From the UHGV virus genome UHGV-0128973: a stretch of DNA of 64,000 nucleotides. One strand, written 5' to 3'. Source of the stretch: a virus. The translations under genes and the position numbers were made by a program. Positions 356 to 38,499 of this stretch are shown here, in pieces (positions within the stretch are counted from its first letter, which is position 1; each line of letters opens with the position of its first letter). A model generated the notes under the pieces. The model made no database searches. It worked only from the letters and a program-made list of their open reading frames with translations, and was not told where the DNA came from.

Positions 356-3300
356 CAAACTACCATTGATGCCGCCAGTAACAGTGAGTCCATTACCGAT
401 CGTAACAGCACCATTGGCATTGTTAATGATAAGCGGCCTTAAATTATTATAGGTTCCCAGGCTGTTACCCGAATTGGTCAACATGAAACATGTGTTTGAA
501 CCATCGTTTCGGATAAAGAATCCGTAGTTTCCGTAGGCAATGCGCAGACCATTCGCCGATTTTGAAATGATCTCACCAGTAGCCGTTAAACCGCCGTTGA
601 GATTTCCTCCGGTTATTGGTAATGCGCCGACATCCGTGGCGGTCGGTTTAATGTGCGAACTGTAAATTACATATACAGTTCCATCTGTCAGGCCTGTTGG
701 TTTATCCGCTGTATAAGATGGTGATGTATGAATCGTTACGCTGGCGTTACTGGTATAATCCCACTGAATATTAACACGTGTGGTGTAATTACCTATTTCA
801 ACATAAACATCATAGGTATCACCGGATGTATTCACCCATGCAAAATTAGTAAATCCAACCGATGTCCGTCGCCATAACGCACCAGTAAGACCTTTTGGAT
901 TCCCATTTCCCGCACGAAGAACAAGTTCAGATATACCAGCCTGCATAGGGGAGTTAACATTATATCCAGAACCACCAATCAGGCTTATGTAAACCACGGA
1001 ACTGGACTGTGGCATGGTTACAGTTGCCAGCTTGAACCATCCAGTACCACCACTAAAAGACATTGTTGTTGAGTTGATCGTGCCTATAGACCTTGGAGTT
1101 AGCTCAATGTTTTTAGAACCGTCAAACAACACCCCATTTATAGTTCTAGCGGTTTGTAACTTGGTCGCTGTCGCTGCATTACCGGTTGTGTTCTGATTAC
1201 CCGCAACGTTAACACCAGGTAAATTAATATTCGCAGTACCATCAAAGCTAACTCCGCCGATAGTTCTTGCCGTCTGTAGTTTTGTAGCGGTTGCTGCATT
1301 GCCAGTTGTATTCTGATTGCCAGTGGCATTCACACCAGGAATGGAGTCCCTTGATGTATATACCTGCGCCCACGCTGACCATGCCGCATCAGTGTTATCT
1401 CTTCGGGAGCGAATGAAAACCGGCGCATGTGCACCGCTCGTACCACTCCAGCCAATAAGCAACTCGCCTTCACCAGCAGCACTCGCACCTTTCATGTGCA
1501 ATACGTTGCCATACGTGGTCGGGTAGCTATTGTTGTACGCCTCATACATCTGCAATCCAGTAGAAGCACCTTGTGTTTTATCGGTGAGCGCAGTAACACG
1601 CCCTCTGGACGCAATTGTTGGTATCGAAATGTTCGCAGAACCATCAAACTTAACACCGTTGATTGTGCGTGCTGTTTGCAGTTTTGTTGCAGTTGCGGCA
1701 TTGCCGGTAGTGCTCTGATTACCTGCTGTATTCACGCCCGGCAGGTCGATATTGGCACTACCATCGAATGACACTCCGCCTATTGTGCGTGCTGTTTGCA
1801 GTTTTGTTGCAGTTGCAGCATTGCCGGTAGTGCTCTGATTACCTGCTTTATTCACGCCCGGCAGGTCGATATTGGCACTACCATCGAACGACACTCCGCC
1901 GATTGTGCGTGCTGTTTGCAGTTTTGTGGCGGTGGATGCATTACCTGTCAAAGATCCACTAAGAGCCACGGCACTAAGAGACTTAACACTTACATCCTGA
2001 CCCCATCCGGAAACAACAACCTGACTCCACGCTGCCCAGCTTCCATTAACAACAAAGCGAACGTATATACGTTTTGTGTCGCTGTTAATCAGCGTTTGCA
2101 TGTTCGCATAATCTGATCCCGTAGTCTTACGAATCGACTCTACACGAACCAAAAAGTTACCGCTTACGCCGTCAGGCTTATTGGTAATATTTGCACCACC
2201 TGCGACAGTTTTGCATTGATAGTATTTAACGGATCCAGCTTCTGTATTAGCAATAATCAAGTCGTTTAAATCAATAGTCCGGCCGTCAATGGCTTCCGGC
2301 TCGATGGCTCCTGCTATCCCGGCACTGAATGTGGCAGCGGCTGAAAACGCTGTCTTACCTTTGAAAGTCTGTTGAGAACTCCAGGTATTAGCTGTGCTCA
2401 ACAGGGGGATCTTTTCGCCGCTGGTTCCGATTTCTCTTAAACCAAGGTATTGGATAACAGCCAGTGTGCTTGTTTTAGCCAGGATATCGCGACCGACTGA
2501 CGTTAAATCAGTCTGGGAAACAGTGTCTGTACCGGTAAAGTACGGCAATTTATTTGCGCCTGTCGCAAGACCAGCAAGCGCGGTTAAAGTTGCATCCAGA
2601 GGCTGTTTGCCTGCCAGCGCATTTGTCATTGTTGTCGCAAAGTTCGGGTCATTGCCCAGTGCTGCTGCAAGCTCATTCAGGGTATCAAGAGCTTCAGGTG
2701 ATGAGCCGACCAATGCAGAGATAGCAGCTCTTACATAAGCGGTCGTAGCAATCTGCGTGTTATTCGTACCCTGTGCAGCGGTAGGCGCAGTAGGTATTCC
2801 CGTTAATGCAGGACTTGCTAAAGGAGCTTTAAGAGCCAGAGCATTGTTGATAGTTGTGCTGAAATTCGGGTCGTTATTGATCGCAGCAGCTATTTCTTTA
2901 AGCGTATCCAGAGTGCCAGGTGCACCGTTGATAAGTGCCGTTATAGCTGCCTTAACAAAGGCTGTATTTGCGATCTGCGTGCTGTTTGTACCTTGCGCTG
3001 CCGTCGGCGCGGTTGGCGTTCCTGTCAGACTCGGGCTTTCTATTGGCGCTTTGGTATCAGCCAGCTCTTTTACAGACTTAACGGCTTTAGGGGTAGCCGC
3101 CATTGTTTCGCTGTCGCTGTTAGTTGCGCTACTGAGCTGAACTAATCCCTTTTGTGTTGTGCTTGCATCCTGCGCCGTATACTTGCTTTTAGCCAGATCG
3201 TAGGCTTTTTTAACCGCCAGCGAACTTGCAGCGACATCACTTCTGGTACTGGTTACAGAGTCGGAAATTTCAATGCCTATCGCGAGATCGATGCGGTCGG

Positions 3301-3805
3301 ATACATCTATCATTTCCTTAGTAATAGCAGATACGCCAGCAGGGATATTCACCGTACAAACAAGCAGTTCTCCATCTCCTAACTGATATGAATCGGTATA
3401 GGTTCTGGCAACAAATTCAGCCGCATGAATATGTGACGCGGTATTAACCTGATAAGAATCTTCTCCAAGGAGGTATCTTCCCTTCAGCACAATTGCATAT
3501 TTCTTACCTGCGCTAAGTGCAAGAGAAATATCCTTACGCTGCTGAATAGTTACCTGGTAGAATTCACCAATATTCACTGACGCCGCGCCAGCGGTTTTAT
3601 CACCATCCACTGAGGTGATTAACAGGTTCATCCCACCGCCAGGCTTAGGAAAAAAACCGGCATAAAATCCAGGGTCAACAATTCCCCTGAATTTTCGGTT
3701 TAGCGCGGCTGACAGATATGGTTCGTGGTATTGCACATCAGCCACCAGAGCCAACGACTCGGGTGATGGGTAAGTAACCGATGTGACAACTGTAACGTCA
3801 TTCAT
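1..3805 (-). CDS. Tail fibre protein with tandem phage tail-fibre repeats; start at 3805, 3' end runs off the window
   Basis: Minus-strand ATG at 3803-3805 opens a frame that I read without stops to position 1 (absent from ORF track, presumably because no stop lies in the window). A ~40-aa unit ATATKLQTARTIGGVSFDGSANIDLPGVNxAGNQxTTGNA recurs more than 8 times. Confidence 0.75.
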   Translation of the reverse strand, partial: MNDVTVVTSVTYPSPESLALVADVQYHEPYLSAALNRKFRGIVDPGFYAGFFPKPGGGMNLLITSVDGDKTAGAASVNIGEFYQVTIQQRKDISLALSAGKKYAIVLKGRYLLGEDSYQVNTASHIHAAEFVARTYTDSYQLGDGELLVCTVNIPAGVSAITKEMIDVSDRIDLAIGIEISDSVTSTRSDVAASSLAVKKAYDLAKSKYTAQDASTTQKGLVQLSSATNSDSETMAATPKAVKSVKELADTKAPIESPSLTGTPTAPTAAQGTNSTQIANTAFVKAAITALINGAPGTLDTLKEIAAAINNDPNFSTTINNALALKAPLASPALTGIPTAPTAAQGTNNTQIATTAYVRAAISALVGSSPEALDTLNELAAALGNDPNFATTMTNALAGKQPLDATLTALAGLATGANKLPYFTGTDTVSQTDLTSVGRDILAKTSTLAVIQYLGLREIGTSGEKIPLLSTANTWSSQQTFKGKTAFSAAATFSAGIAGAIEPEAIDGRTIDLNDLIIANTEAGSVKYYQCKTVAGGANITNKPDGVSGNFLVRVESIRKTTGSDYANMQTLINSDTKRIYVRFVVNGSWAAWSQVVVSGWGQDVSVKSLSAVALSGSLTGNASTATKLQTARTIGGVSFDGSANIDLPGVNKAGNQSTTGNAATATKLQTARTIGGVSFDGSANIDLPGVNTAGNQSTTGNAATATKLQTARTINGVKFDGSANISIPTIASRGRVTALTDKTQGASTGLQMYEAYNNSYPTTYGNVLHMKGASAAGEGELLIGWSGTSGAHAPVFIRSRRDNTDAAWSAWAQVYTSRDSIPGVNATGNQNTTGNAATATKLQTARTIGGVSFDGTANINLPGVNVAGNQNTTGNAATATKLQTARTINGVLFDGSKNIELTPRSIGTINSTTMSFSGGTGWFKLATVTMPQSSSVVYISLIGGSGYNVNSPMQAGISELVLRAGNGNPKGLTGALWRRTSVGFTNFAWVNTSGDTYDVYVEIGNYTTRVNIQWDYTSNASVTIHTSPSYTADKPTGLTDGTVYVIYSSHIKPTATDVGALPITGGNLNGGLTATGEIISKSANGLRIAYGNYGFFIRNDGSNTCFMLTNSGNSLGTYNNLRPLIINNANGAVTIGNGLTVTGGINGSLNGNAATATKLQTARTIGGVSFDGSANIDLPGVNKAGNQSTTGNAATATKLQTARTIGGVSFDGSANIDLPGVNKAGNQSTTGNAATATKLQTARTIGGVSFDGSANIDLPGVNKAGNQ
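1640..1930. repeat. Second block of the same ~120-bp tail-fibre repeat (about 2.5 copies); diverged copies also near 1140-1340
   Basis: Same unit as 1-355 seen at 1660-1780 and 1780-1900. Confidence 0.85.
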
Positions 3806-3816
3806 CAAGCATATCC

Positions 3817-4251
3817 TTATGCTGTAGTCGTGTTTATGGCCATAACTGCGGTATATGTTTTGCCCACATACAGCGAGTCTTCCTGGACACAAATAATGGC
3901 GATTGGCTTGTTCTCGTTATCCAGAACAACCAGAGTGTTGAATGGGTAGTTTTTCCCTTTCTGCAACTGGCTTTGATCAAGGTCCATTCGGACAGTAATT
4001 ATCCCGCCTGAGTAGGTTGGGACGAGGTTGATGGTGCAAAATTTACTGGTCAGTTCTGCCAGCTCGAAAGCCTTTGGCAGTTCTCCAATCTCATAAGTGC
4101 CATCTCCTTTCTTAGTAACCAGTGAACTGGTACCGAAAACGGCCTTGCTGATTAAAAATCGAGAGCCTTTGTTAATGGACGATTCAGCGCGCCGCTGATA
4201 GTAATAGTCCAACAACTGACTCTTATAGAGGTTTGTTGAGACGTCAGACAT
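3817..4251 (-). CDS. Hypothetical tail/baseplate-associated protein (144 aa)
   Basis: ORF track; 12 nt upstream of the tail-fibre start on the same strand, inside the structural operon. Confidence 0.5.
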   Translation of the reverse strand: MSDVSTNLYKSQLLDYYYQRRAESSINKGSRFLISKAVFGTSSLVTKKGDGTYEIGELPKAFELAELTSKFCTINLVPTYSGGIITVRMDLDQSQLQKGKNYPFNTLVVLDNENKPIAIICVQEDSLYVGKTYTAVMAINTTTA

Positions 4252-4329
4252 GATTTTCCCTAATCAATGTTGTGAAGCCTCATTGTAAGAGAAGTAACTT
4301 GTCACCCCGCCCTGCGGACGGGGTGATTG

Positions 4330-5169
4330 TCAGGCGTCGCTATCCAGCAACAAATCATCTGCGCGTGTGCGATCAAACGTAGGTGTCGCTTTCACAATAG
4401 TGCCACCAGGCGTTGCGGTGATCGGGGCGCTAATCGACGTAACTCCAGTAAGCGAAGTTGTATCCGAAGTTTCAAACCAGCAGTACGCTTTTTCGGTATC
4501 AGAAATCTCGTTCAAAGTGATCATGTCGGCCTGTTCATTCACAACAACCGACAAATAGAGCGTAAGCCCATCAAACACTATATGCAGTGGCAGTAGAGGC
4601 TTTACGAACTGATTAAACTTTCTGAGAATTTCTTCTGTAATTGCGGACTGATCTATCGTGCCAGTAATACCCATTGTCCGGGCCAGGTCGTTTATGGGAA
4701 TACTGATCATCCCTCTGGAAGTCAGAAACATCTCACCGAATGTGCCGCCGGTAGTTTCCAGTGTGCTTTCTGGTATTAGAACTGTGCCATAGGGATGACG
4801 TTCAAGGTCCACCGGTGCATATATCGGATCCCATAAAACAGAAATACCATTAAATTCGCGGTAAATTGTCTGGTTTATAGGGCGTTCAGTCCCCTTAAAG
4901 TGAATCTCATCAAGCCGCTGTTGTAACAACATCGGAACGGAAGATGAGTTTGAGGTTCTGATAGTAAAGAACTGGCCAAGTTCATTTGTCCTGGTCTCCA
5001 GATCCTCCTTGCTCATGGAAAAAATAGACTTCCGGTTGGTAATTCGCTCCAACCATGGGTCAACAAAGGTGTCCATCATTGACTGAACCAAATCAGCCAA
5101 TGATTTATAGAGCAATGACTTTTGCTTAGCTGATGTAAGCCGATTATTAAACCAGGAACGTTGCATCAC
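4330..5169 (-). CDS. Hypothetical baseplate/tail protein (279 aa)
   Basis: ORF track; its start overlaps the stop of the 477-aa ORF (coupled). Confidence 0.5.
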   Translation of the reverse strand: MMQRSWFNNRLTSAKQKSLLYKSLADLVQSMMDTFVDPWLERITNRKSIFSMSKEDLETRTNELGQFFTIRTSNSSSVPMLLQQRLDEIHFKGTERPINQTIYREFNGISVLWDPIYAPVDLERHPYGTVLIPESTLETTGGTFGEMFLTSRGMISIPINDLARTMGITGTIDQSAITEEILRKFNQFVKPLLPLHIVFDGLTLYLSVVVNEQADMITLNEISDTEKAYCWFETSDTTSLTGVTSISAPITATPGGTIVKATPTFDRTRADDLLLDSDA

Positions 5170-18020: not shown

Positions 18021-18074
18021 TACAATCGTTGCGGGTGCTTGAGGCTATCTGCTTCAGGTATTACCCGAAAAGCA

Positions 18075-18152
18075 GATAGAAGAAAGCCCCAGATAACATT
18101 ACGCGTCCTGCAAGACGCTTAACATTAATCTGAGGCCATATCTATGCTTAGC
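18075..18152 (-). ncRNA. Sok-like antisense RNA (putative)
   Basis: Minus-strand promoter-like TTGACC-N18-TAATCT (plus coordinates 18159-18189) would drive a transcript antisense to the mok start at 18144. Confidence 0.3.
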
Positions 18153-18350
18153 ATACGTAGATTAGCCTCTTACCGACCAAAAGGTCAAGGAGAAGCAGGC
18201 TATGAAGCAGCAAAAAGCGATGTTAATCGCTCTGATCGTCATCTGTTTAACCGTCATTGTGACGGCACTGGTAACGAGGAAAGACCTCTGCGAGGTACGA
18301 ATCCGAACCAGCCAGACGGAGGTCACTGTCTTCACAGCCTACGAATCTGA
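18144..18350 (+). CDS. Mok-like overlapping reading frame (68 aa)
   Basis: ORF track; starts upstream of hok and overlaps it in another frame, as in hok/mok/sok loci. Confidence 0.4.
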   Translation: MLSIRRLASYRPKGQGEAGYEAAKSDVNRSDRHLFNRHCDGTGNEERPLRGTNPNQPDGGHCLHSLRI

Positions 18351-32157: not shown

Positions 32158-34418
32158 AAGAGCTGTGCTATGGATCTGTTTGCAGTGGAATTGAAGCCGC
32201 GAGTATTGCCTGGGAACCGTTGGGTATGCGTCCGGCGTGGTTTGCTGAAATCGAGCCTTTTCCATCTGCCGTTCTTGCGCACCGCTGGCCCCATGTCGCC
32301 AACCTTGGCGACATGACAAAACTTGCCAAAAAAGTCCTGGCTGGGGAAATCGAATCCCCTGATGTGCTCGTCGGGGGTACGCCTTGTCAGGCATTCAGTA
32401 TCGCGGGCTTACGTGGTGGGCTTGATGATGAACGCGGCGCGCTAACTTTGAAGTATGTGGAGCTTGCAAATGCAATTGACGACAAACGGTCTGAGTCCTT
32501 CCTCAAACCGACAGTTATCGTCTGGGAAAATGTCCCAGGAGTCCTGTCATCGGCAGATAACGCCTTCGGATGTTTCCTTGCCGGATTGGCTGGAGAAGAT
32601 GCGCCATTTGAACCAGGTGATCGACCTGAATCAGGAAAAAGTAACGCGTTCTGGCGGTGGGATGGCAAAACCGGTTGCCATGCTCCAAAGTGGCCGCAGT
32701 GTGGTTGTATTTATGGACCGCAGCGAAAGGTGGCCTGGAGAATCCTTGATGCCCAATACTTCGGAGTGGCACAACGACGCCGACGCGTGTTTGTTGTCGC
32801 AAGTGCTCGAACAGACCTCGATCCCGCAACGGTACTTTTTGAGTTCGAAGGCGTGCGCCGGAATATTGCGCCGAGCCGAAAAAAGAAGGAAATCGCTTCC
32901 GCCATTATTGCAAATGGCGCTGCAATCAGTGGCGAAAGCCTAAATCCATGCCTACACGCTGACATGCCACCCGGTATGAAATCGACGAAAGCCGTAAACG
33001 CTTTCAGGATGGCGGCATTTGGGGAATATATTGACGATGAAACCGCATCGACAGTAAAGGCAAGAGATTTTAAAGATGCCACTGACCTTGCCGTTTTTAG
33101 CAGCACAGGAGCAGGTTTTTGGTCAGAAGGGCATGGTACATTGCGGGCACGTGAGCAAGAAAGCCATGAGCATCTTGTTACATTGGCTTTTCCTGAGCGT
33201 ATGAGCGGTACACAACATGCTGCAACTAAGAATACTTCACCATCTCTAATGGCTAAAAATCCAACAGCTGTATGCTATGAAGTAAGAAACGCAGAAGTAG
33301 CTGTCCGCCGTCTTACCCCTGTCGAATGTGAAAGGCTGCAAGGTTTTCCTGATGGGCATACGTTGATCCCGACGGAAAAGCGTAAAAAAGTTAATTCAGA
33401 TGAACTGGCATATCTTCGCAATCACTATCCAGATTTAAGCGAAGAAGAGGCCGCGATGCTTGCAGCTGACGGACCGCGTTACAAAGCGATCGGCAATAGT
33501 ATGGCAATACCAGTAATGTGCTGGATTGGCGATCGGATTACTAAGGCCGTATGTCGGCAGAAAGAAGGAAGTGAAACAAAAGAGCGAAAAGTTAAACCAG
33601 CGGCAGAATTCGAACGGTCCATATTCAAATGGGCTGGTGGAAAATTTGGTGTTCTGGAACAAATCTTTCGCTATTTGCCAGAAGGGAAGCGCCTGATTGA
33701 ACCTTTCGTTGGTGGCGGAGCTGTCTTCATGAATGCCGGATACCAGGAAAATCTGCTAAATGATGTGAATGCTGACCTGATTAACTTTTACAAGACTCTG
33801 CAACGCGAGGCGCATTCACTTATCACTCTGGCACATCGTTTCTTCCAGGACTACAACACGCAGGAAGGATACCTGGCAGTACGGAATGCGTTTAACAAAC
33901 AAGTCTATGATGATTTACATCGCGCAGCGGCGTTTTTGTTCCTGAACCGACATTGTTTTAACGGATTGACGCGTTACAACCAAGCCGGTGAGTTCAATGT
34001 CGGTTATGGGAAGTATAAAACTCCGTATTTCCCATTGCAGGAGATGGAAGCCTTCCTTGGTGCGGAAGGGCGTTCTGAGTTTGTATGTGGTGATTTTGCT
34101 GCGGTGATTGAAGCTGCCGGAGAAGGAGATGTCATCTTTTGCGATCCGCCGTATGAACCGCTCCCAAATACAGAGGGATTCACGAACTATTCCGGTCATG
34201 ACTTTAAGTTTGAAGAGCAAAAACGCCTGGTGTCTCTGTTGACGGATGCTCATCGCCGAGGTGCAAAGGTTCTCATTACTAACAGTGGCGCGCCAAACAT
34301 CAGAGAACTTTATCAGGACAGTGGCTTCAGAGTGGAACCTCTTTTTGCCAGACGTTCTGTGTCTTGTAAGGGGGACACTCGAGGTGTTGCTCATGACGTT
34401 ATAGCAATATTGCTCTAA
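32154..34418 (+). CDS. dmt: Bifunctional DNA methyltransferase: N-terminal C5-cytosine MTase-like, C-terminal N6-adenine MTase-like (754 aa)
   Basis: ORF track; GTG start overlapping the hrdC stop; motifs [11 protein letters not shown] and ENVPG (C5-MTase), and DPPY (N6-MTase). Confidence 0.85.
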
Positions 34419-34425
34419 TAAATTT
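34409..34425 (+). promoter_or_regulatory. C1-operator-like 17-mer (ATTGCTCTAATAAATTT) overlapping the dmt stop codon
   Basis: Perfect motif copy; the dmt TAA (34416-34418) lies inside it. Confidence 0.55.
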
Positions 34426-34602
34426 ATTAGTGTAATATCGCCTCAATGAATCGTGATTTATAGAGCGATTTAGCTGTTAGCCGCGACAGGCGCGGCGGCA
34501 AGTATGGCGGGGTAGTGACTCCTTCCCCCTCATGACGCCGAGTTGCCAGGTTGACCATACGCCTAAGTGGCAACACCGAAGTGCGTTACGAGCTTCCAGT
34601 TT

Positions 34603-34628
34603 GCCCATCTTCGGGTGGGCGTTTTTTT
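34603..34628 (+). terminator. Rho-independent terminator after dmt
   Basis: Stem gcccatc / ggtgggc with loop ttcg, followed by a run of seven T. Confidence 0.55.
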
Positions 34629-35093
34629 CAGGGTTTTCGTCATGGTTAGCGACTTTGCGGCGGTTTAGAAACTGACCATTAAAGTAAATGCAAACGATGA
34701 TCTGATGATGGTAGCGGCCTAAGAAGCCAGACGCCACGGGGTATGAGTCGTCCCCCGTCAAAAAATCGACCGCAGAGTGTCCCCGTCTGTGTATTAGGGA
34801 ACGGGGAGGCACAACAGGTAAGGGCGCTGGTGTGATTAACCAGATGAACGAGAAGGGGCCATCTGTTGGTCAGCGTCCTTTCCTGTTGCGTCTTCTTTTC
34901 AGCGTAACAGCGGTGCTTAACAGCACTTTGGGTACAGTTCCACGAATTTACGGGTATATCCCGTCATGCTGAAAGCGCTAATCACGCTGGAAGCCAGGGT
35001 TATGCATCCCCTGTTACCGAATTGCAGCCAGGGCGCGGTGCGCCGAAAAGCATACGGAGGTGGAAGCCCTCGCCGGAGACGTACCCGGCAAGT

Positions 35094-35168
35094 GATGGTG
35101 TAGCTCAGCGGTAGAGCAGTTGGCTGTTAACCAACTGGTCGGTGGTTCGAATCCACCCACCATCGCCA
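35094..35168 (+). tRNA. tRNA-Asn (anticodon GUU)
   Basis: Hand-folded cloverleaf: acceptor GATGGTG/CACCATC, anticodon loop CTGTTAA, T-loop TTCGAAT, encoded CCA. Confidence 0.85.
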
Positions 35169-35173
35169 ATTTA

Positions 35174-35260
35174 GGGGAGTTAGTCCGTAGGGGTAGCGGG
35201 GTAGACTGTAAATCTACTGTCATTGCGACTCGGGTGGTTCGACTCCATCACTCCCCACCA
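35174..35260 (+). tRNA. Type II tRNA with anticodon GUA (tRNA-Tyr-like, 87 nt)
   Basis: Acceptor GGGGAGT/ACTCCCC, anticodon arm GTAGA-CTGTAAA-TCTAC, long variable arm, T-loop TTCGACT, encoded CCA; the D-arm is imperfect. Confidence 0.6.
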
Positions 35261-35264
35261 AATT

Positions 35265-35340
35265 GCCGGTTTAGCTCAGTTGGTAGAGCAGTCGCTTTGT
35301 AAGCGAATGGTCAGCGGTTCGATCCCGTTAACCGGCACCA
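35265..35340 (+). tRNA. tRNA-Thr (anticodon UGU)
   Basis: Acceptor GCCGGTT/AACCGGC, anticodon loop TTTGTAA, T-loop TTCGATC, encoded CCA. Confidence 0.8.
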
Positions 35341-36072
35341 ACACAACAGGTAAGAGCATTTGTAGAGTTCGACTCTCTACCGTGGGCTTTTTCCCGCGAT
35401 GCGAGCCATAAATGCTCTTACCGTTGTGATGAAGTGCAGCTCTTAGAAGCAACCAGAAGATAAGCATCTGGCTTCACAACATAAACCGCAGGAACGACCA
35501 ATAAACGGTAGTCCGTATGGAGAACACCCCGTTGAGGAAGAGGCCTGGCCGGAACCGTAACCGGCACTACAACGTTGAGAACACTGGCGTAACGGGGTCA
35601 TATCCCAATCTACGAATAAATGTTGCGTTGCAGCGTGACAACCAGTGTTCTCAACATTGTGGTGAATGCACAGGCTGATGTGCCGCAACTACAGTAGTGC
35701 GCGCTTTGCGGGGCTTGCTACAACCCTGTGTCGGAGTTCAGCACCGACCATCACAGTTTGATTCTCTGGCATGAGCATAACGCTGAAATAAGTCCAGCCT
35801 GGTGCGGCCCGATCACCCGCCGTTAGCTCCACGAAACGGAGCACGTAACAGGTAAGAGCATTCTCCTGTAACGGGTTCATATCCCAATCTACAGGTCCAC
35901 CAGGAATGCTCTTTCCGTTGCGGTGAATGCGGCTAAGCGCACGCGGGGAAATGGTTATATCAGTCCATTCATTTCTCCTTGTTTCCCCGTCCACGGTGGA
36001 TAACCAGCCAAAGGACACCGGGAGGCACCCGGCACCGCAACCTTATTTCCCAACCAGTAATGAGGTTAATAA

Positions 36073-36498
36073 ATGCTCGGCATTCTCAAAAAGAAATTCC
36101 GCAAAGCGGCTGGCGGAGTCAAGAAGATGGAAAACCGTGATGCGGTGGAAGCGACTGTCTGGGGCGCATATTCCATTGCATACTCTGACGGCACCTGCGA
36201 TGCGAAAGAAATTGCAGTATTGGAAAAAACCATTGCAGCACTTCCTGCCTTTGCGCCGTTCTCCGGTGAAATTGCCCAGATGAGCGCCAATATTCGCGCT
36301 CAATATGAAGCCTCGCCGCGCCGAGCGAATGCCCAGGCTTTACGTGAACTGGCTGACGTGTCTGGAACTAATGATGCGGTAGATGTTCTGTGCCTATGCA
36401 TTGATATTGCTGACCAGGATGGCATTGGGGCAGAAGAGCAGGAGCAATTGAAGAAAATTGCCCAGGCTCTTCAATTGCCACTGGAACAGTATATCTGA
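36073..36498 (+). CDS. tciA: TerB-like protein (tellurite-resistance TerB family, 141 aa)
   Basis: ORF track; acidic TerB-like sequence with DG/EE-rich helices; followed by two tiny membrane ORFs. Confidence 0.55.
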   Translation: MLGILKKKFRKAAGGVKKMENRDAVEATVWGAYSIAYSDGTCDAKEIAVLEKTIAALPAFAPFSGEIAQMSANIRAQYEASPRRANAQALRELADVSGTNDAVDVLCLCIDIADQDGIGAEEQEQLKKIAQALQLPLEQYI

Positions 36499-36662
36499 TG
36501 GTTATAAAAGCACGTCTAATTCTGGCTTTGGTTTTTCTCGTGCTATCTGTGCTGGTGGATTTCACCAGCACAATCCTGTCGGTTTTATCCGACGGGGCGT
36601 TGGTAGCAGTAGCTGTAACATTGGTATGGCCGATATTAAAAACAGCTTCTAAGGAACAGTGA
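36498..36662 (+). CDS. tciB: Small hydrophobic protein (54 aa)
   Basis: My translation (ATG overlapping the tciA stop): MVIKARLILALVFLVLSVLVDFTSTILSVLSDGALVAVAVTLVWPILKTASKEQ; below the ORF-track size cut-off. Confidence 0.4.
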   Translation: MVIKARLILALVFLVLSVLVDFTSTILSVLSDGALVAVAVTLVWPILKTASKEQ

Positions 36663-36769
36663 TGGGCTTCTGGGATTTTGCTGACAAGCATCCAATTGTT
36701 CTCGTTGTCATTGCTGGCATAGTTGTAGGCGGTATTGCTGGCGTCATAGAAGCACTCAGGAAACAGTAA
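36662..36769 (+). CDS. tciC: Small hydrophobic protein (35 aa)
   Basis: My translation (ATGA overlap with tciB stop): MGFWDFADKHPIVLVVIAGIVVGGIAGVIEALRKQ. Confidence 0.35.
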   Translation: MGFWDFADKHPIVLVVIAGIVVGGIAGVIEALRKQ

Positions 36770-36772
36770 TCC

Positions 36773-36848
36773 GGCCCTTTAGCTCAGTGGTTAGAGCTGG
36801 CGACTCATAATCGCACGGTCACCAGTTCAAGTCCGGTAGGGGCCACCA
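36773..36848 (+). tRNA. tRNA with CAU anticodon, Ile2 (lysidine-type) or Met
   Basis: Cloverleaf closely resembles enterobacterial tRNA-Ile2 (GGCCCTTTAGCTCAGTGGTTAGAGC...CTCATAA...TTCAAGT...AGGGGCCACCA). Confidence 0.8.
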
Positions 36849-37134
36849 TATTTGGTTGTAACACGGCGTCTGGCACATGCGTCGTTAGCGGTCTGGTGAC
36901 GTTAAAAGGGGGGAACCTTGCCCCTAGCTCAGGCAACGAACCAGGTAGCCGGAATGTGCAAGCCACCGTTTGTTGTTTCTCGGGTAAAGGGATTCACCAT
37001 CCTGGCGATTCGGTGTGACAGCCGGGAAGAGTCCGGCGCATTAATCCTGATTTTCTGGTGATGACTCATATCGTTAGGAGTGATTTGAGTATGCCGATTA
37101 TATCTGACATTCAGCACGCCTGGGTGGAGTGCTA

Positions 37135-38499
37135 ATGTCTGCATCCCCTCTTGAATCCATGCCAAATTCCCTTAGTGCAGAACAAGCTGTACTTGGTGGC
37201 TTAATGCTTGATAACTGCCGCTGGGATGAAGTTGCAGATCGTATAGTTGCTGATGATTTTTATACCAGTGCTCATCGTGAAATTTTCAGTGAGATGGAGA
37301 GGTTATTAAGTCATGGCAAACCGATTGATTTGATAACACTTGCTGAAGCACTTGAACAGAACGGTAAATTAGAGCGCGCCGGTGGTTTTGCGTACCTTGC
37401 GGAGATGTCAAAGAACACGCCCAGCGCGGCAAATATTTGTGCTTATGCGGATATCGTTCGTGAACGCGCGGTTGTTCGTGAAATGATTTCCGTCGCAAAT
37501 GAAATAGCCGAAGCTGGATATGCGCAGGATGGCAGGGGCAGCAATGAATTGCTGGATATGGCCGAGCGCCGCGTTTTTGAAATAGCTGAAAAACGACAAA
37601 AGAGCGGTAGTGGTCCAAAAGATATCGCCAGCATTCTCGATGCAACGGTATCTCGCATAGAAGAGTTGTTTCAGCGACCACATGATGGTGTAACGGGGCT
37701 TGATACGGGATTTACCGATCTCAATAAGAAGACGGCAGGGCTTCAGCCGTCCGATCTCATCATTGTCGCCGCCCGCCCATCTATGGGGAAGACCACGTTT
37801 GCGATGAATCTCGTCGAAAATGCCGCAGTTCGTAACGATAAGCCCGTATTGGTTTTTAGCCTTGAGATGCCGAGCCACCAGCTGATGATGCGCTCACTGG
37901 CTTCTCTTGCACGCGTTGATCAGACTCGTATTCGGACAGGGCAACTTAACGACGAGGATTGGGCGCGGGTTTCTGGCGCAATGGGTATTCTGTTGGACAA
38001 GCAGAATATTTTTATTGATGACTCAAGCGCCCTGACGCCGACAGAGCTACGTTCCCGCGCTCGTCGTGTTTATAAAGAAAATGGTGGTTTGAGCATGATT
38101 ATGATCGACTACCTGCAACTTATGCGCGTCCCCGAGCTGCAAGATAACCGAACGCTGGAAATTGCCGAGATTTCTCGCTCACTGAAGGCGTTGGCGAAGG
38201 AATTACAAGTACCGGTGGTGGCATTGTCACAACTTAATCGATCGCTTGAACAGCGTGCGGACAAACGACCGGTAAATTCAGATTTACGTGAATCAGGAGC
38301 AATTGAGCAGGACGCAGACCTGATCATGTTTCTGTATCGCGACGAAGTTTATCACCCGGATAGCGAAATGAAGGGCATTGCCGAGGTAATTATCGGAAAG
38401 CAACGAAATGGCCCAATTGGCACGGTGAGATTGGCTTTTAACGGCCAATACTCACGGTTTGATAACTATGCTGGTGCTGACTGGCAAGAGGATTATTAA
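37135..38499 (+). CDS. ban: DnaB-like replicative helicase
   Basis: Track ORF 37129..38499 (GTG); ATG at 37135 with RBS GGGTGGAG; N-terminus AEQAVLGGLMLDN and Walker A ARPSMGKT are DnaB hallmarks. Confidence 0.9.
   Translation: MSASPLESMPNSLSAEQAVLGGLMLDNCRWDEVADRIVADDFYTSAHREIFSEMERLLSHGKPIDLITLAEALEQNGKLERAGGFAYLAEMSKNTPSAANICAYADIVRERAVVREMISVANEIAEAGYAQDGRGSNELLDMAERRVFEIAEKRQKSGSGPKDIASILDATVSRIEELFQRPHDGVTGLDTGFTDLNKKTAGLQPSDLIIVAARPSMGKTTFAMNLVENAAVRNDKPVLVFSLEMPSHQLMMRSLASLARVDQTRIRTGQLNDEDWARVSGAMGILLDKQNIFIDDSSALTPTELRSRARRVYKENGGLSMIMIDYLQLMRVPELQDNRTLEIAEISRSLKALAKELQVPVVALSQLNRSLEQRADKRPVNSDLRESGAIEQDADLIMFLYRDEVYHPDSEMKGIAEVIIGKQRNGPIGTVRLAFNGQYSRFDNYAGADWQEDY

Follow-up and report, generated by a model that had tools for sequence, protein, structure and literature searches.

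Our study showed that a 64,000-nucleotide stretch of the viral genome UHGV-0128973 (the window) belongs to a P1-family (Punavirus-like) phage-plasmid, and that the region between positions 35,094 and 36,848 is the transfer RNA (tRNA) module of its C1-repressed ban operon. Both this module and its Asn-Tyr-Thr variant, which the window carries, are known and annotated objects, and the functional hypothesis that we propose is an incremental one: in our judgement the probabilities tip slightly towards a module with two overlapping benefits, the supply of tRNAs for the codons of the phage and a back-up against defence systems that deplete tRNAs. At infection or induction, with the C1 repressor no longer in force, the transcript of the ban operon would include the tRNAs, which would then be processed and join the host pool. 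The first benefit would lie in the decoding of codons that the phage uses far more than Escherichia coli, AUA by tRNA-Ile2 and ACA by tRNA-Thr(UGU). The second would come from spare or cleavage-resistant copies of depleted tRNAs, namely Thr-UGU and Asn-GUU (targets of the PARIS nuclease AriB), Thr-UGU again (target of P2 Old), and Tyr-GUA (retron-Eco7 PtuAB).

ARAGORN, run over the whole window, found four tRNA genes, all on the plus strand, with the anticodons gtt (Asn), gta (Tyr), tgt (Thr) and CAT, and each scores above the gathering score of Rfam RF00005 (29 bits); the two programs thus agree with an earlier note on this DNA, which had read the cluster as Asn-GUU, a type II Tyr-GUA, Thr-UGU and a CAU tRNA at the same positions (Table 1). 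The last of these, for which either Ile2 or Met had been offered, can be settled from its sequence as a predicted tRNA-Ile2 of the lysidine type and not Met: its identity with ileX is 88%, as against 70% with metT and 61% with metV, it differs by one base from P1 trnI (annotated tRNA-Ile2), and near-identical copies are labelled tRNA-Ile by PGAP (tRNAscan-based) and in RefSeq. Its acceptor stem (GGCCCUU/AGGGGCC) forms the pairs C4:G69 and C5:G68, which TilS reportedly uses in tRNA-Ile2. Relative to P1 and pO111_2, the window copy has a single G to A change in the T stem, which gives an A.C mismatch.

The surroundings of the four genes are those of P1. Positions 34400-37200 are 96.5% identical to phage P1 over trnA-trnT-plp-upl-tciA-tciB-tciC-trnI-ban, in the same gene order, and the window also contains a C4 antisense RNA, the a1b1 targets of C4 and 11 C1-operator-like sites (0.32 expected), which are hallmarks of P1-type immunity. 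One operator 17-mer, ATTGCTCTAATAAATTT, is found exactly at 34409-34425 and its inverted copy at 34420-34436; at the homologous position, the P1 annotation (NC_005856) places Obanab over the promoters P1ban and P2ban, and the P7 record states that the operator controls the tRNA genes. Because the tRNA genes lie behind this C1 operator pair, they are expected to be off in lysogens; by analogy with how P1 and P7 are annotated, their synthesis should follow infection or induction.

The case for codon supply comes from a comparison of the long open reading frames (ORFs) of the window with those of one 50-kb sample of E. coli MG1655. The most enriched codons were AGG (6.5-fold), AUA (4.7-fold), AGA (3.9-fold), CGA (2.9-fold), ACA (2.6-fold) and UCA (2.5-fold); AAU stood at 1.7-fold, UAU at 1.28-fold, UAC at 1.02-fold and AAC at about 1-fold or lower, while residue usage was about 1.15- to 1.16-fold for Tyr and about 1.15-fold for Asn. 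Codon demand explains Ile2 (AUA) and Thr-UGU (ACA) well, Asn moderately and Tyr poorly, and it also accounts for the Ser-UGA (UCA) and Arg-UCU (AGA/AGG) genes of relatives. One could therefore propose that the module supplies codons and amino acids and nothing else, its tRNAs offsetting the lower G+C content and the codon usage of the phage, with the allele differences described below being neutral mosaicism. The match between the enriched codons AUA, ACA, UCA and AGA/AGG and the tRNAs found in the family (Ile2, Thr-UGU, Ser-UGA and Arg-UCU), the enrichment of AAU, and the lack of a nuclease-escape signature in the P1 reference alleles all speak for this proposal, but we find it rather unlikely, for three reasons. 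The rise in Tyr usage is too slight for codon demand to account for the added Tyr gene, yet 262 of 5,426 complete E. coli genomes have the Asn-Tyr-Thr cassette on a plasmid, with pO111_2 and plasmids of O104:H4, O26 and O157 strains among them; AGG, AGA and CGA are highly enriched but the window has no tRNA for them; and the differences between Thr alleles cluster in the anticodon stem, at positions that matter for Old and AriB (PMC12445682; PMC12409363). The earlier note had allowed that codon usage might explain the set in full; with Tyr so poorly explained, it does not.

The second benefit is suggested by studies of other phages. Retron-Eco7 depletes tRNA-Tyr, and a tRNA-Tyr of the T5 family rescues infection (PMC11555353); in a screen of 245 coliphage tRNAs against PtuAB, only tRNA-Tyr(GUA) was enriched (PMC12445682). 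The targets of AriB are Lys-UUU, Thr-UGU and, less strongly cleaved, Asn-GUU; the cut falls between positions 40 and 41 of the site U36AAUC↓A41, and replacing U39 by A in tRNA-Lys abolishes cleavage; full rescue of T5 from PARIS requires its Lys, Thr and Asn variants (PMC12409363). P2 Old acts on the anticodon stem of Thr-UGU, cutting behind the C of the paired CNG motifs (C28-N-G30/C40-N-G42), a phage tRNA-Thr(UGU) rescues from it, and the resistant phage tRNAs combine a CNG change (G30C/C40G or C28U/G42A) with a lost stem pair, both of which are needed (PMC12445682).

Set against these sites, the Thr and Asn genes of the window differ from their counterparts in P1 where it would matter (Table 2). 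They are 87% (Thr) and 89.5% (Asn) identical to the P1 alleles, compared with about 97% for the flanks. The window Thr reads U28-C-G30/C40-G-A42, with a G27.A43 mismatch, G39 and G41, while E. coli thrU and P1 trnT keep CUG/CAG; it thus carries the published signature of P2 Old resistance, which P1 Thr does not, and is predicted to be resistant. Of the AriB site, U39 and A41 are also missing from this Thr, and U39 from the window Asn. Relative to thrU, 8 of the 10 anticodon-stem bases of the window Thr are changed as opposed to 11 of 63 elsewhere (Fisher P 1.8e-4), and relative to the P1 allele 6 of 10 as opposed to 7 of 63 (P 0.0014), values that flatter our proposal, since stem positions change in pairs and the tests overcount independent events. 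Ile2, which is not reported as a target in the nuclease papers cited here, shows no such concentration (1 of 10 versus 8 of 63). Among the IMG/VR loci sampled, the altered Thr anticodon arm was found only alongside Tyr. The idea put forward in the earlier note, that the set may bypass tRNA-targeting toxins or defences and not serve codon supply alone, survives in this form, in agreement with the rescue by the same tRNA species in other phages and with the Thr and Asn stem changes, but without the colicin E5 frame in which it was cast (see below). Two observations on other phages concern the same gene. Many phage tRNA-Thr(UGU) genes at IMG/VR loci share an identical 25-nt 5' part and differ widely in their anticodon stems, where a 27/43 or 31/39 mismatch is frequent, and the tRNA-Thr arm of the T4-like phage Sf22 (ACUCA/UGAGA) fits the description of the Old-resistant tRNA-Thr6.

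The Tyr gene is missing from the P1 reference: P1 and P7 have a 2-nt spacer between Asn and Thr where the window has 87 nt of tRNA-Tyr. Its acceptor, anticodon and T stems are perfect, and it has U33, A37, A73, G1:C72, an encoded CCA and a long variable arm that resembles that of tyrU. Tyrosyl-tRNA synthetase recognizes a GUA anticodon, a long variable arm, the A73 discriminator and G1:C72, and the window tRNA has this whole set; like the other tRNAs of the window, it is predicted to be aminoacylated. The D arm is irregular, with two extra nucleotides placed by Rfam between the acceptor and D stems and only two D-stem positions paired by ARAGORN. It is conceivable that the gene is a defective hitch-hiker without function, gained by recombination in a hot spot of tRNA exchange: besides the D arm, of the four genes it scores lowest with Rfam (41.9 bits), its minimum free energy (MFE) fold is no better than that of shuffled sequence (z -0.67), some annotators label its distant relatives 'Pseudo' or 'OTHER', and the region is a known variable mosaic (IMG/VR loci; PMC9603915). 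Apart from the intact stems and identity elements, however, the same irregular D-arm sequence is kept in the tRNA-Tyr genes of rV5-like, T4-like, Felix O1-like and T5-like phages, to which the window gene is 93%, 92%, 78% and 80% identical, respectively, with values of 90-93% across the T4-like and rV5-like copies; the gene is 100% conserved between the window, vB_EcoM-Ro157c2YLVW (Ro157c2YLVW) and pO111_2, though the adjoining bases vary; and the tRNA-Tyr genes of T5, the T5-like phage SP15 and Klebsiella phage KpP_HS106 work in rescue assays (PMC11555353). We consequently regard a defective gene as improbable, and the sequence comparison points to a member of a widespread phage tRNA-Tyr family, not to a decayed gene.

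Table 1. Features of the tRNA module and its surroundings in the window
Feature	Position	Strand	Basis
Bivalent C1 repressor operator (Oban/Op72) at ban-operon promoters	34409..34436	.	17-mer and inverted copy
Intrinsic-terminator-like hairpin, end of 'dicF-like' leader segment	34599..34630	+	8-bp G+C-rich stem, then T7 run
Hairpin module M0	34808..34892	+	MFE -42.4 kcal/mol, z -4.3; base-stem motif CAACAGGTAAGRGC
tRNA-Asn (GUU), C39 allele	35094..35168	+	ARAGORN; Rfam 75.5 bits
tRNA-Tyr (GUA), type II, missing from P1 reference	35174..35260	+	ARAGORN; Rfam 41.9 bits
tRNA-Thr (UGU), altered and shortened anticodon stem	35265..35340	+	ARAGORN; Rfam 67.2 bits
Hairpin module M1, directly 3' of tRNA-Thr	35342..35428	+	MFE -43.1 kcal/mol, z -7.0
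Hairpin module M2, 23-bp outer stem	35565..35664	+	MFE -49.2 kcal/mol, z -6.6; inverted repeat I1
Hairpin module M3	35844..35922	+	MFE -35.0 kcal/mol, z -4.7; repeats D2-D4, I5
tciA, TerB-domain protein, 141 aa	36073..36498	+	Pfam TerB (PF05099) 28.4 bits, cut-off 24.4; PHROG 632; P1 tciA
tciB, DUF3927 small membrane protein, 54 aa	36498..36662	+	Pfam DUF3927 104 bits; PHROG 1470
tciC, 35-aa ORF	36662..36769	+	PHROG 23152 only, no known function; P1 tciC
tRNA-Ile2 (CAU; ileX-like), predicted	36773..36848	+	ARAGORN (Met by default); Rfam 59.1 bits
ban (DnaB-like replicative helicase), downstream operon gene	37135..38499	+	ORF; homologous position annotated ban in P1, P7, Ro157c2YLVW

Table 2. 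Anticodon stems of Thr and Asn tRNAs and their Old and AriB sites
tRNA	Anticodon stem	Positions 36-41	Remark
E. coli thrU	ACUGA/UCAGU	UAAUCA	both CNG motifs, 5 pairs
P1 trnT	CCUGC/GCAGG	UAAGCA	both CNG motifs, 5 pairs
Window Thr	GUCGC/GCGAA	UAAGCG	both CNG motifs lost (U28:A42), 27/43 unpaired (G.A)
E. coli asnT	GCGGA/UCCGU	UAAUCC	
P1 Asn	GUUGA/UCAAC	UAAUCA	full AriB site
Window Asn	GUUGG/CCAAC	UAACCA	U39 replaced by C

Several points weigh against a role in counter-defence. P1 reference Thr retains the Old CNG motifs and P1 Asn the full AriB site, so nuclease escape is no general property of the module, and the difference in the anticodon arm could stem from recombination with another phage lineage instead of selection by nucleases. 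The 64-kb window has no tRNA-Lys(UUU), the prime AriB target, according to ARAGORN, and therefore the cluster alone cannot do what the T5 set does and neutralise PARIS (PMC12409363); none of the three tRNA genes of the whole P1 reference genome is for tRNA-Lys either (table in PMC13015707). Direct cleavage of tRNA-Tyr by PtuAB of retron-Eco7 is disputed (PMC12819146), and our literature search turned up no test of P1-family tRNAs against nucleases or defence systems. A terminator-like hairpin lies between Pban and the tRNA genes, with no internal promoter found, and we infer expression from the operon context only; our promoter scan of 34300-37200 found no promoter at all, even at the position homologous to P1 Pban, and is thus uninformative on internal promoters. 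Lastly, the codon enrichments that bear on the other benefit come from a single host sample.

The P1-family module is combinatorial: in the IMG/VR sample it consists of Asn or Arg-UCU, an optional Tyr, Thr, an optional Ser-UGA and an optional Ile2. The Asn-Tyr-Thr cassette, already annotated in GenBank or RefSeq in phage Ro157c2YLVW and in P1-like plasmids, is a common variant and an alternative allele of the Asn-Thr pair of P1. A more far-reaching version of our proposal, which we advance tentatively and rate as possible but short of probable, is that the module is a modular, recombining counter-defence cassette moulded by conflict with other temperate elements of E. coli. The Thr and Asn alleles would differ mostly in the anticodon stem, through selection for escape from two Toprim tRNases, Old of P2 and PARIS of P4-type satellites, and Tyr would have been added against depletion of the retron-Eco7 type, leaving the set in the window resistant to Old and that of laboratory P1 sensitive. 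A gene annotated as the Thoeris anti-defence protein Tad2 follows the cassette in pB2C_96 (locus coordinates 2501-4821), where Asn-Tyr-Thr, 100% identical to those of the window, are succeeded by tRNA-Ser, tRNA-Ile and this gene, an arrangement that points to a gathering of counter-defence functions around the module in some relatives.

The earlier note had seen a different kind of toxin behind the cluster, namely colicin E5-type anticodon nucleases, and had linked the tRNAs to the colicin or tellurite resistance ascribed to the adjacent tciABC genes. The tRNAs would then have been chosen for their QUN anticodons and would act together with tciABC as resistance genes. Colicin E5 reportedly has this anticodon class as its specificity, and two of the four tRNAs in the window (Asn and Tyr) would be substrates on that basis. 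The proposed bias towards QUN anticodons is accordingly present, but it is weak: the nominal hypergeometric P of about 0.04 for at least two of four is post hoc, the class having been picked after the fact, and over the family-wide repertoire (Asn, Tyr, Thr, Ser-UGA, Ile2 and Arg-UCU) two of six species are QUN (P of about 0.10). The other two QUN tRNAs, His and Asp, are absent from the window according to ARAGORN. Moreover, the 7-nt anticodon loops of the window Asn and Tyr are identical to those of asnT and tyrU of the host, so that cleavage by a loop-reading nuclease would be expected for them just as for the host tRNAs, and we see no signature of escape. With the operon behind C1 operators, the tRNAs should also be off in lysogens, the very cells that would meet colicin.

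A TerB-like gene does lie next to the tRNA genes, as the earlier note had proposed, tciA being located between the Thr and CAU genes and matching Pfam TerB above the cut-off, through residues 11-57 of the protein. We did not encounter the multigene ter operon (terZABCDE), which confers resistance to tellurite, colicins or phages: only tciA, tciB and tciC are present here, between tRNA genes. The colicins against which ter operons protect are pore-forming ones, and this protection is not known to extend to tRNase colicins. None of the three genes has a PADLOC match, and the functional labels of P1 tciABC rest on homology. Many relatives keep the tRNAs but lack tciABC or carry an SPFH gene in its place, and a survey of P1-like plasmids, which counts tciABC among eight hypervariable regions, reports its loss from nearly half of one subgroup (PMC9603915). 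Among the complete E. coli genomes, no single contiguous match was found to the combination of the Tyr cassette and tciABC seen in the window. The tciABC slot is an independently replaceable accessory one, filled with operon cargo and not with a functional partner of the tRNAs. Neither the supposed link of the tRNAs to tciABC resistance nor the colicin E5 target set is supported, and we consider the two together very improbable as an explanation of the module.

The ~730 nt between tRNA-Thr and tciA are probably structured RNA. They contain three long hairpins, M1 to M3, which form one family with M0, located in the leader upstream of tRNA-Asn, through a common base stem, CAACAGGTAAGRGC...GCYCTTWCCGTTG; the base-stem motif occurs nowhere else in the window, and the hairpins match no Rfam family. 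Across relatives, the base stem of M1 is kept, with compensatory exchanges of G:C for A:U and of C:G for U:A pairs, below at least four unrelated apical 'cargo' sequences. Our best guess, of low confidence, is that M0-M3 are processing sites of the RNase III type; a weaker possibility is that they may serve as recombination sites at which P1-like and lambdoid leaders swap tRNA 'cargo'. In the chromosome of E. coli CREC7837 (locus 2612-2680 and 3028-3112), M1 hairpins of the P7 and of the window type, with further parts of the P1 ban leader, are seen in the non-coding leader that runs from the Q antiterminator to the holin gene of a lambdoid prophage. This is also the region in which Stx phages carry tRNA genes. 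We rejected two other interpretations of the hairpins. One was that in relatives the long hairpins surround tRNA genes, such as Ser in P7, D6 and pB2C_96; on alignment, the Ser segment proved to be a different insert that the M2 stem does not flank. The other was that the cargoes are decayed tRNAs, for which nothing beyond T-arm-length similarity was found in two of them, insufficient for a pseudogene call.

The minus-strand ORFs plp and upl, annotated in P1 (35443-36018 on the minus strand of the window; P1 locus 3808-4377), overlap strong hairpins in this stretch, and in P1 plp overlaps the 3' end of trnT. They are probably not genes: neither has a Pfam match in the window, PGAP calls neither in a close relative, their lengths differ between the window and P1, and the ORF on the plp side matches no PHROG while that on the upl side matches only PHROGs 7444 and 14500, of unknown function. 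Directly after M3, at 35919-36039, Rfam gives a match to the small RNA (sRNA) STnc100 below threshold (37.8 bits, gathering 47), the 3' end of which, CACCGGGAGGCACCCGGCACC, fits the consensus exactly; a similar sequence, GGGGAGGCAC, precedes M0 at 34803-34812. In the leader, the terminator-like hairpin matches the position of the region annotated as 'dicF-like' in P1. DicF itself was discarded as an identity, with no Rfam DicF match at E<=1, and weak matches to tmRNA and miRNA families in the leader were far under threshold and taken as chance. Elsewhere in the window, at 18033-18207, a strong Rfam match (114 bits) to the antitoxin RNA sok implies, from sequence, that this P1-like element has an addiction module of the hok/sok type. 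Such a module is not known from the P1 reference, where phd/doc has this role.

What this work adds is a prediction: that the variant, unlike laboratory P1, has a Thr with the signature of Old resistance, Thr and Asn without U39 of the AriB site, and a Tyr whose family provides rescue from retron-Eco7. Clinical and animal E. coli often carry P1-like phage-plasmids, which spread resistance genes. If the module decides growth in hosts that carry P2, P4/PARIS or retrons, allele typing of three short genes would help to predict host range and transduction, and counter-defence by tRNA back-up would extend from large virulent phages (T5 and T4) to temperate plasmid-prophages. If it does not, the region is an ordinary, already annotated codon-supply module.

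The closest known system is the set of ban-operon tRNAs of P1 itself (NC_005856: trnA for Asn, trnT for Thr, trnI for Ile2, and tciABC), which shares with the window the locus, the order, the flanks, the C1 operator pair and ban, but has no tRNA-Tyr between Asn and Thr and has other alleles of these two genes, the Thr differences lying mostly in the anticodon arm. In Ro157c2YLVW, pO111_2 and pB2C_96, the Tyr gene of the window and its Thr anticodon arm recur unchanged, whereas the place of tciABC is taken by an SPFH gene in the first two and by a Ser-tRNA and Tad2 in pB2C_96. The P7 record (NC_050152) has at locus 2795-2881 an unannotated type II tRNA-Ser(UGA), found by ARAGORN and 99% identical to the annotated tRNA-Ser of phage D6. 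A cluster of N4-like phages, Asn-Ser(UGA)-Thr-Pro, has the layout and spacer lengths of the window, with a type II tRNA between Asn and Thr, and the N4 tRNA-Asn is 96% identical to that of the window, which is itself 65% identical to E. coli asnT; the middle gene of this cluster, however, is a Ser-UGA 58% identical to the window Tyr, and its Thr is 83% identical. The T5 tRNA-Tyr that evades retron-Eco7 (PMC11555353) is, like the window gene, a type II Tyr(GUA) of the same sequence family, the T5-like copy being ~80% identical, but its rescue relies on a very strong dedicated promoter, whereas the window Tyr, known here from sequence, sits in a repressor-controlled operon of a temperate element. 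The Old-resistant tRNA-Thr6 and tRNA-Thr21 (PMC12445682) have the anticodon of the window Thr, which combines C28U/G42A with an unpaired 27/43, the two changes reported to be jointly needed. The AriB-resistant T5 tRNA-Thr and tRNA-Asn (PMC12409363) likewise have the anticodons found in the window, where U39 is replaced in both; the T5 set against PARIS includes a tRNA-Lys(UUU), which the window set does not, and the resistance of the window tRNAs is a prediction from their sequence.

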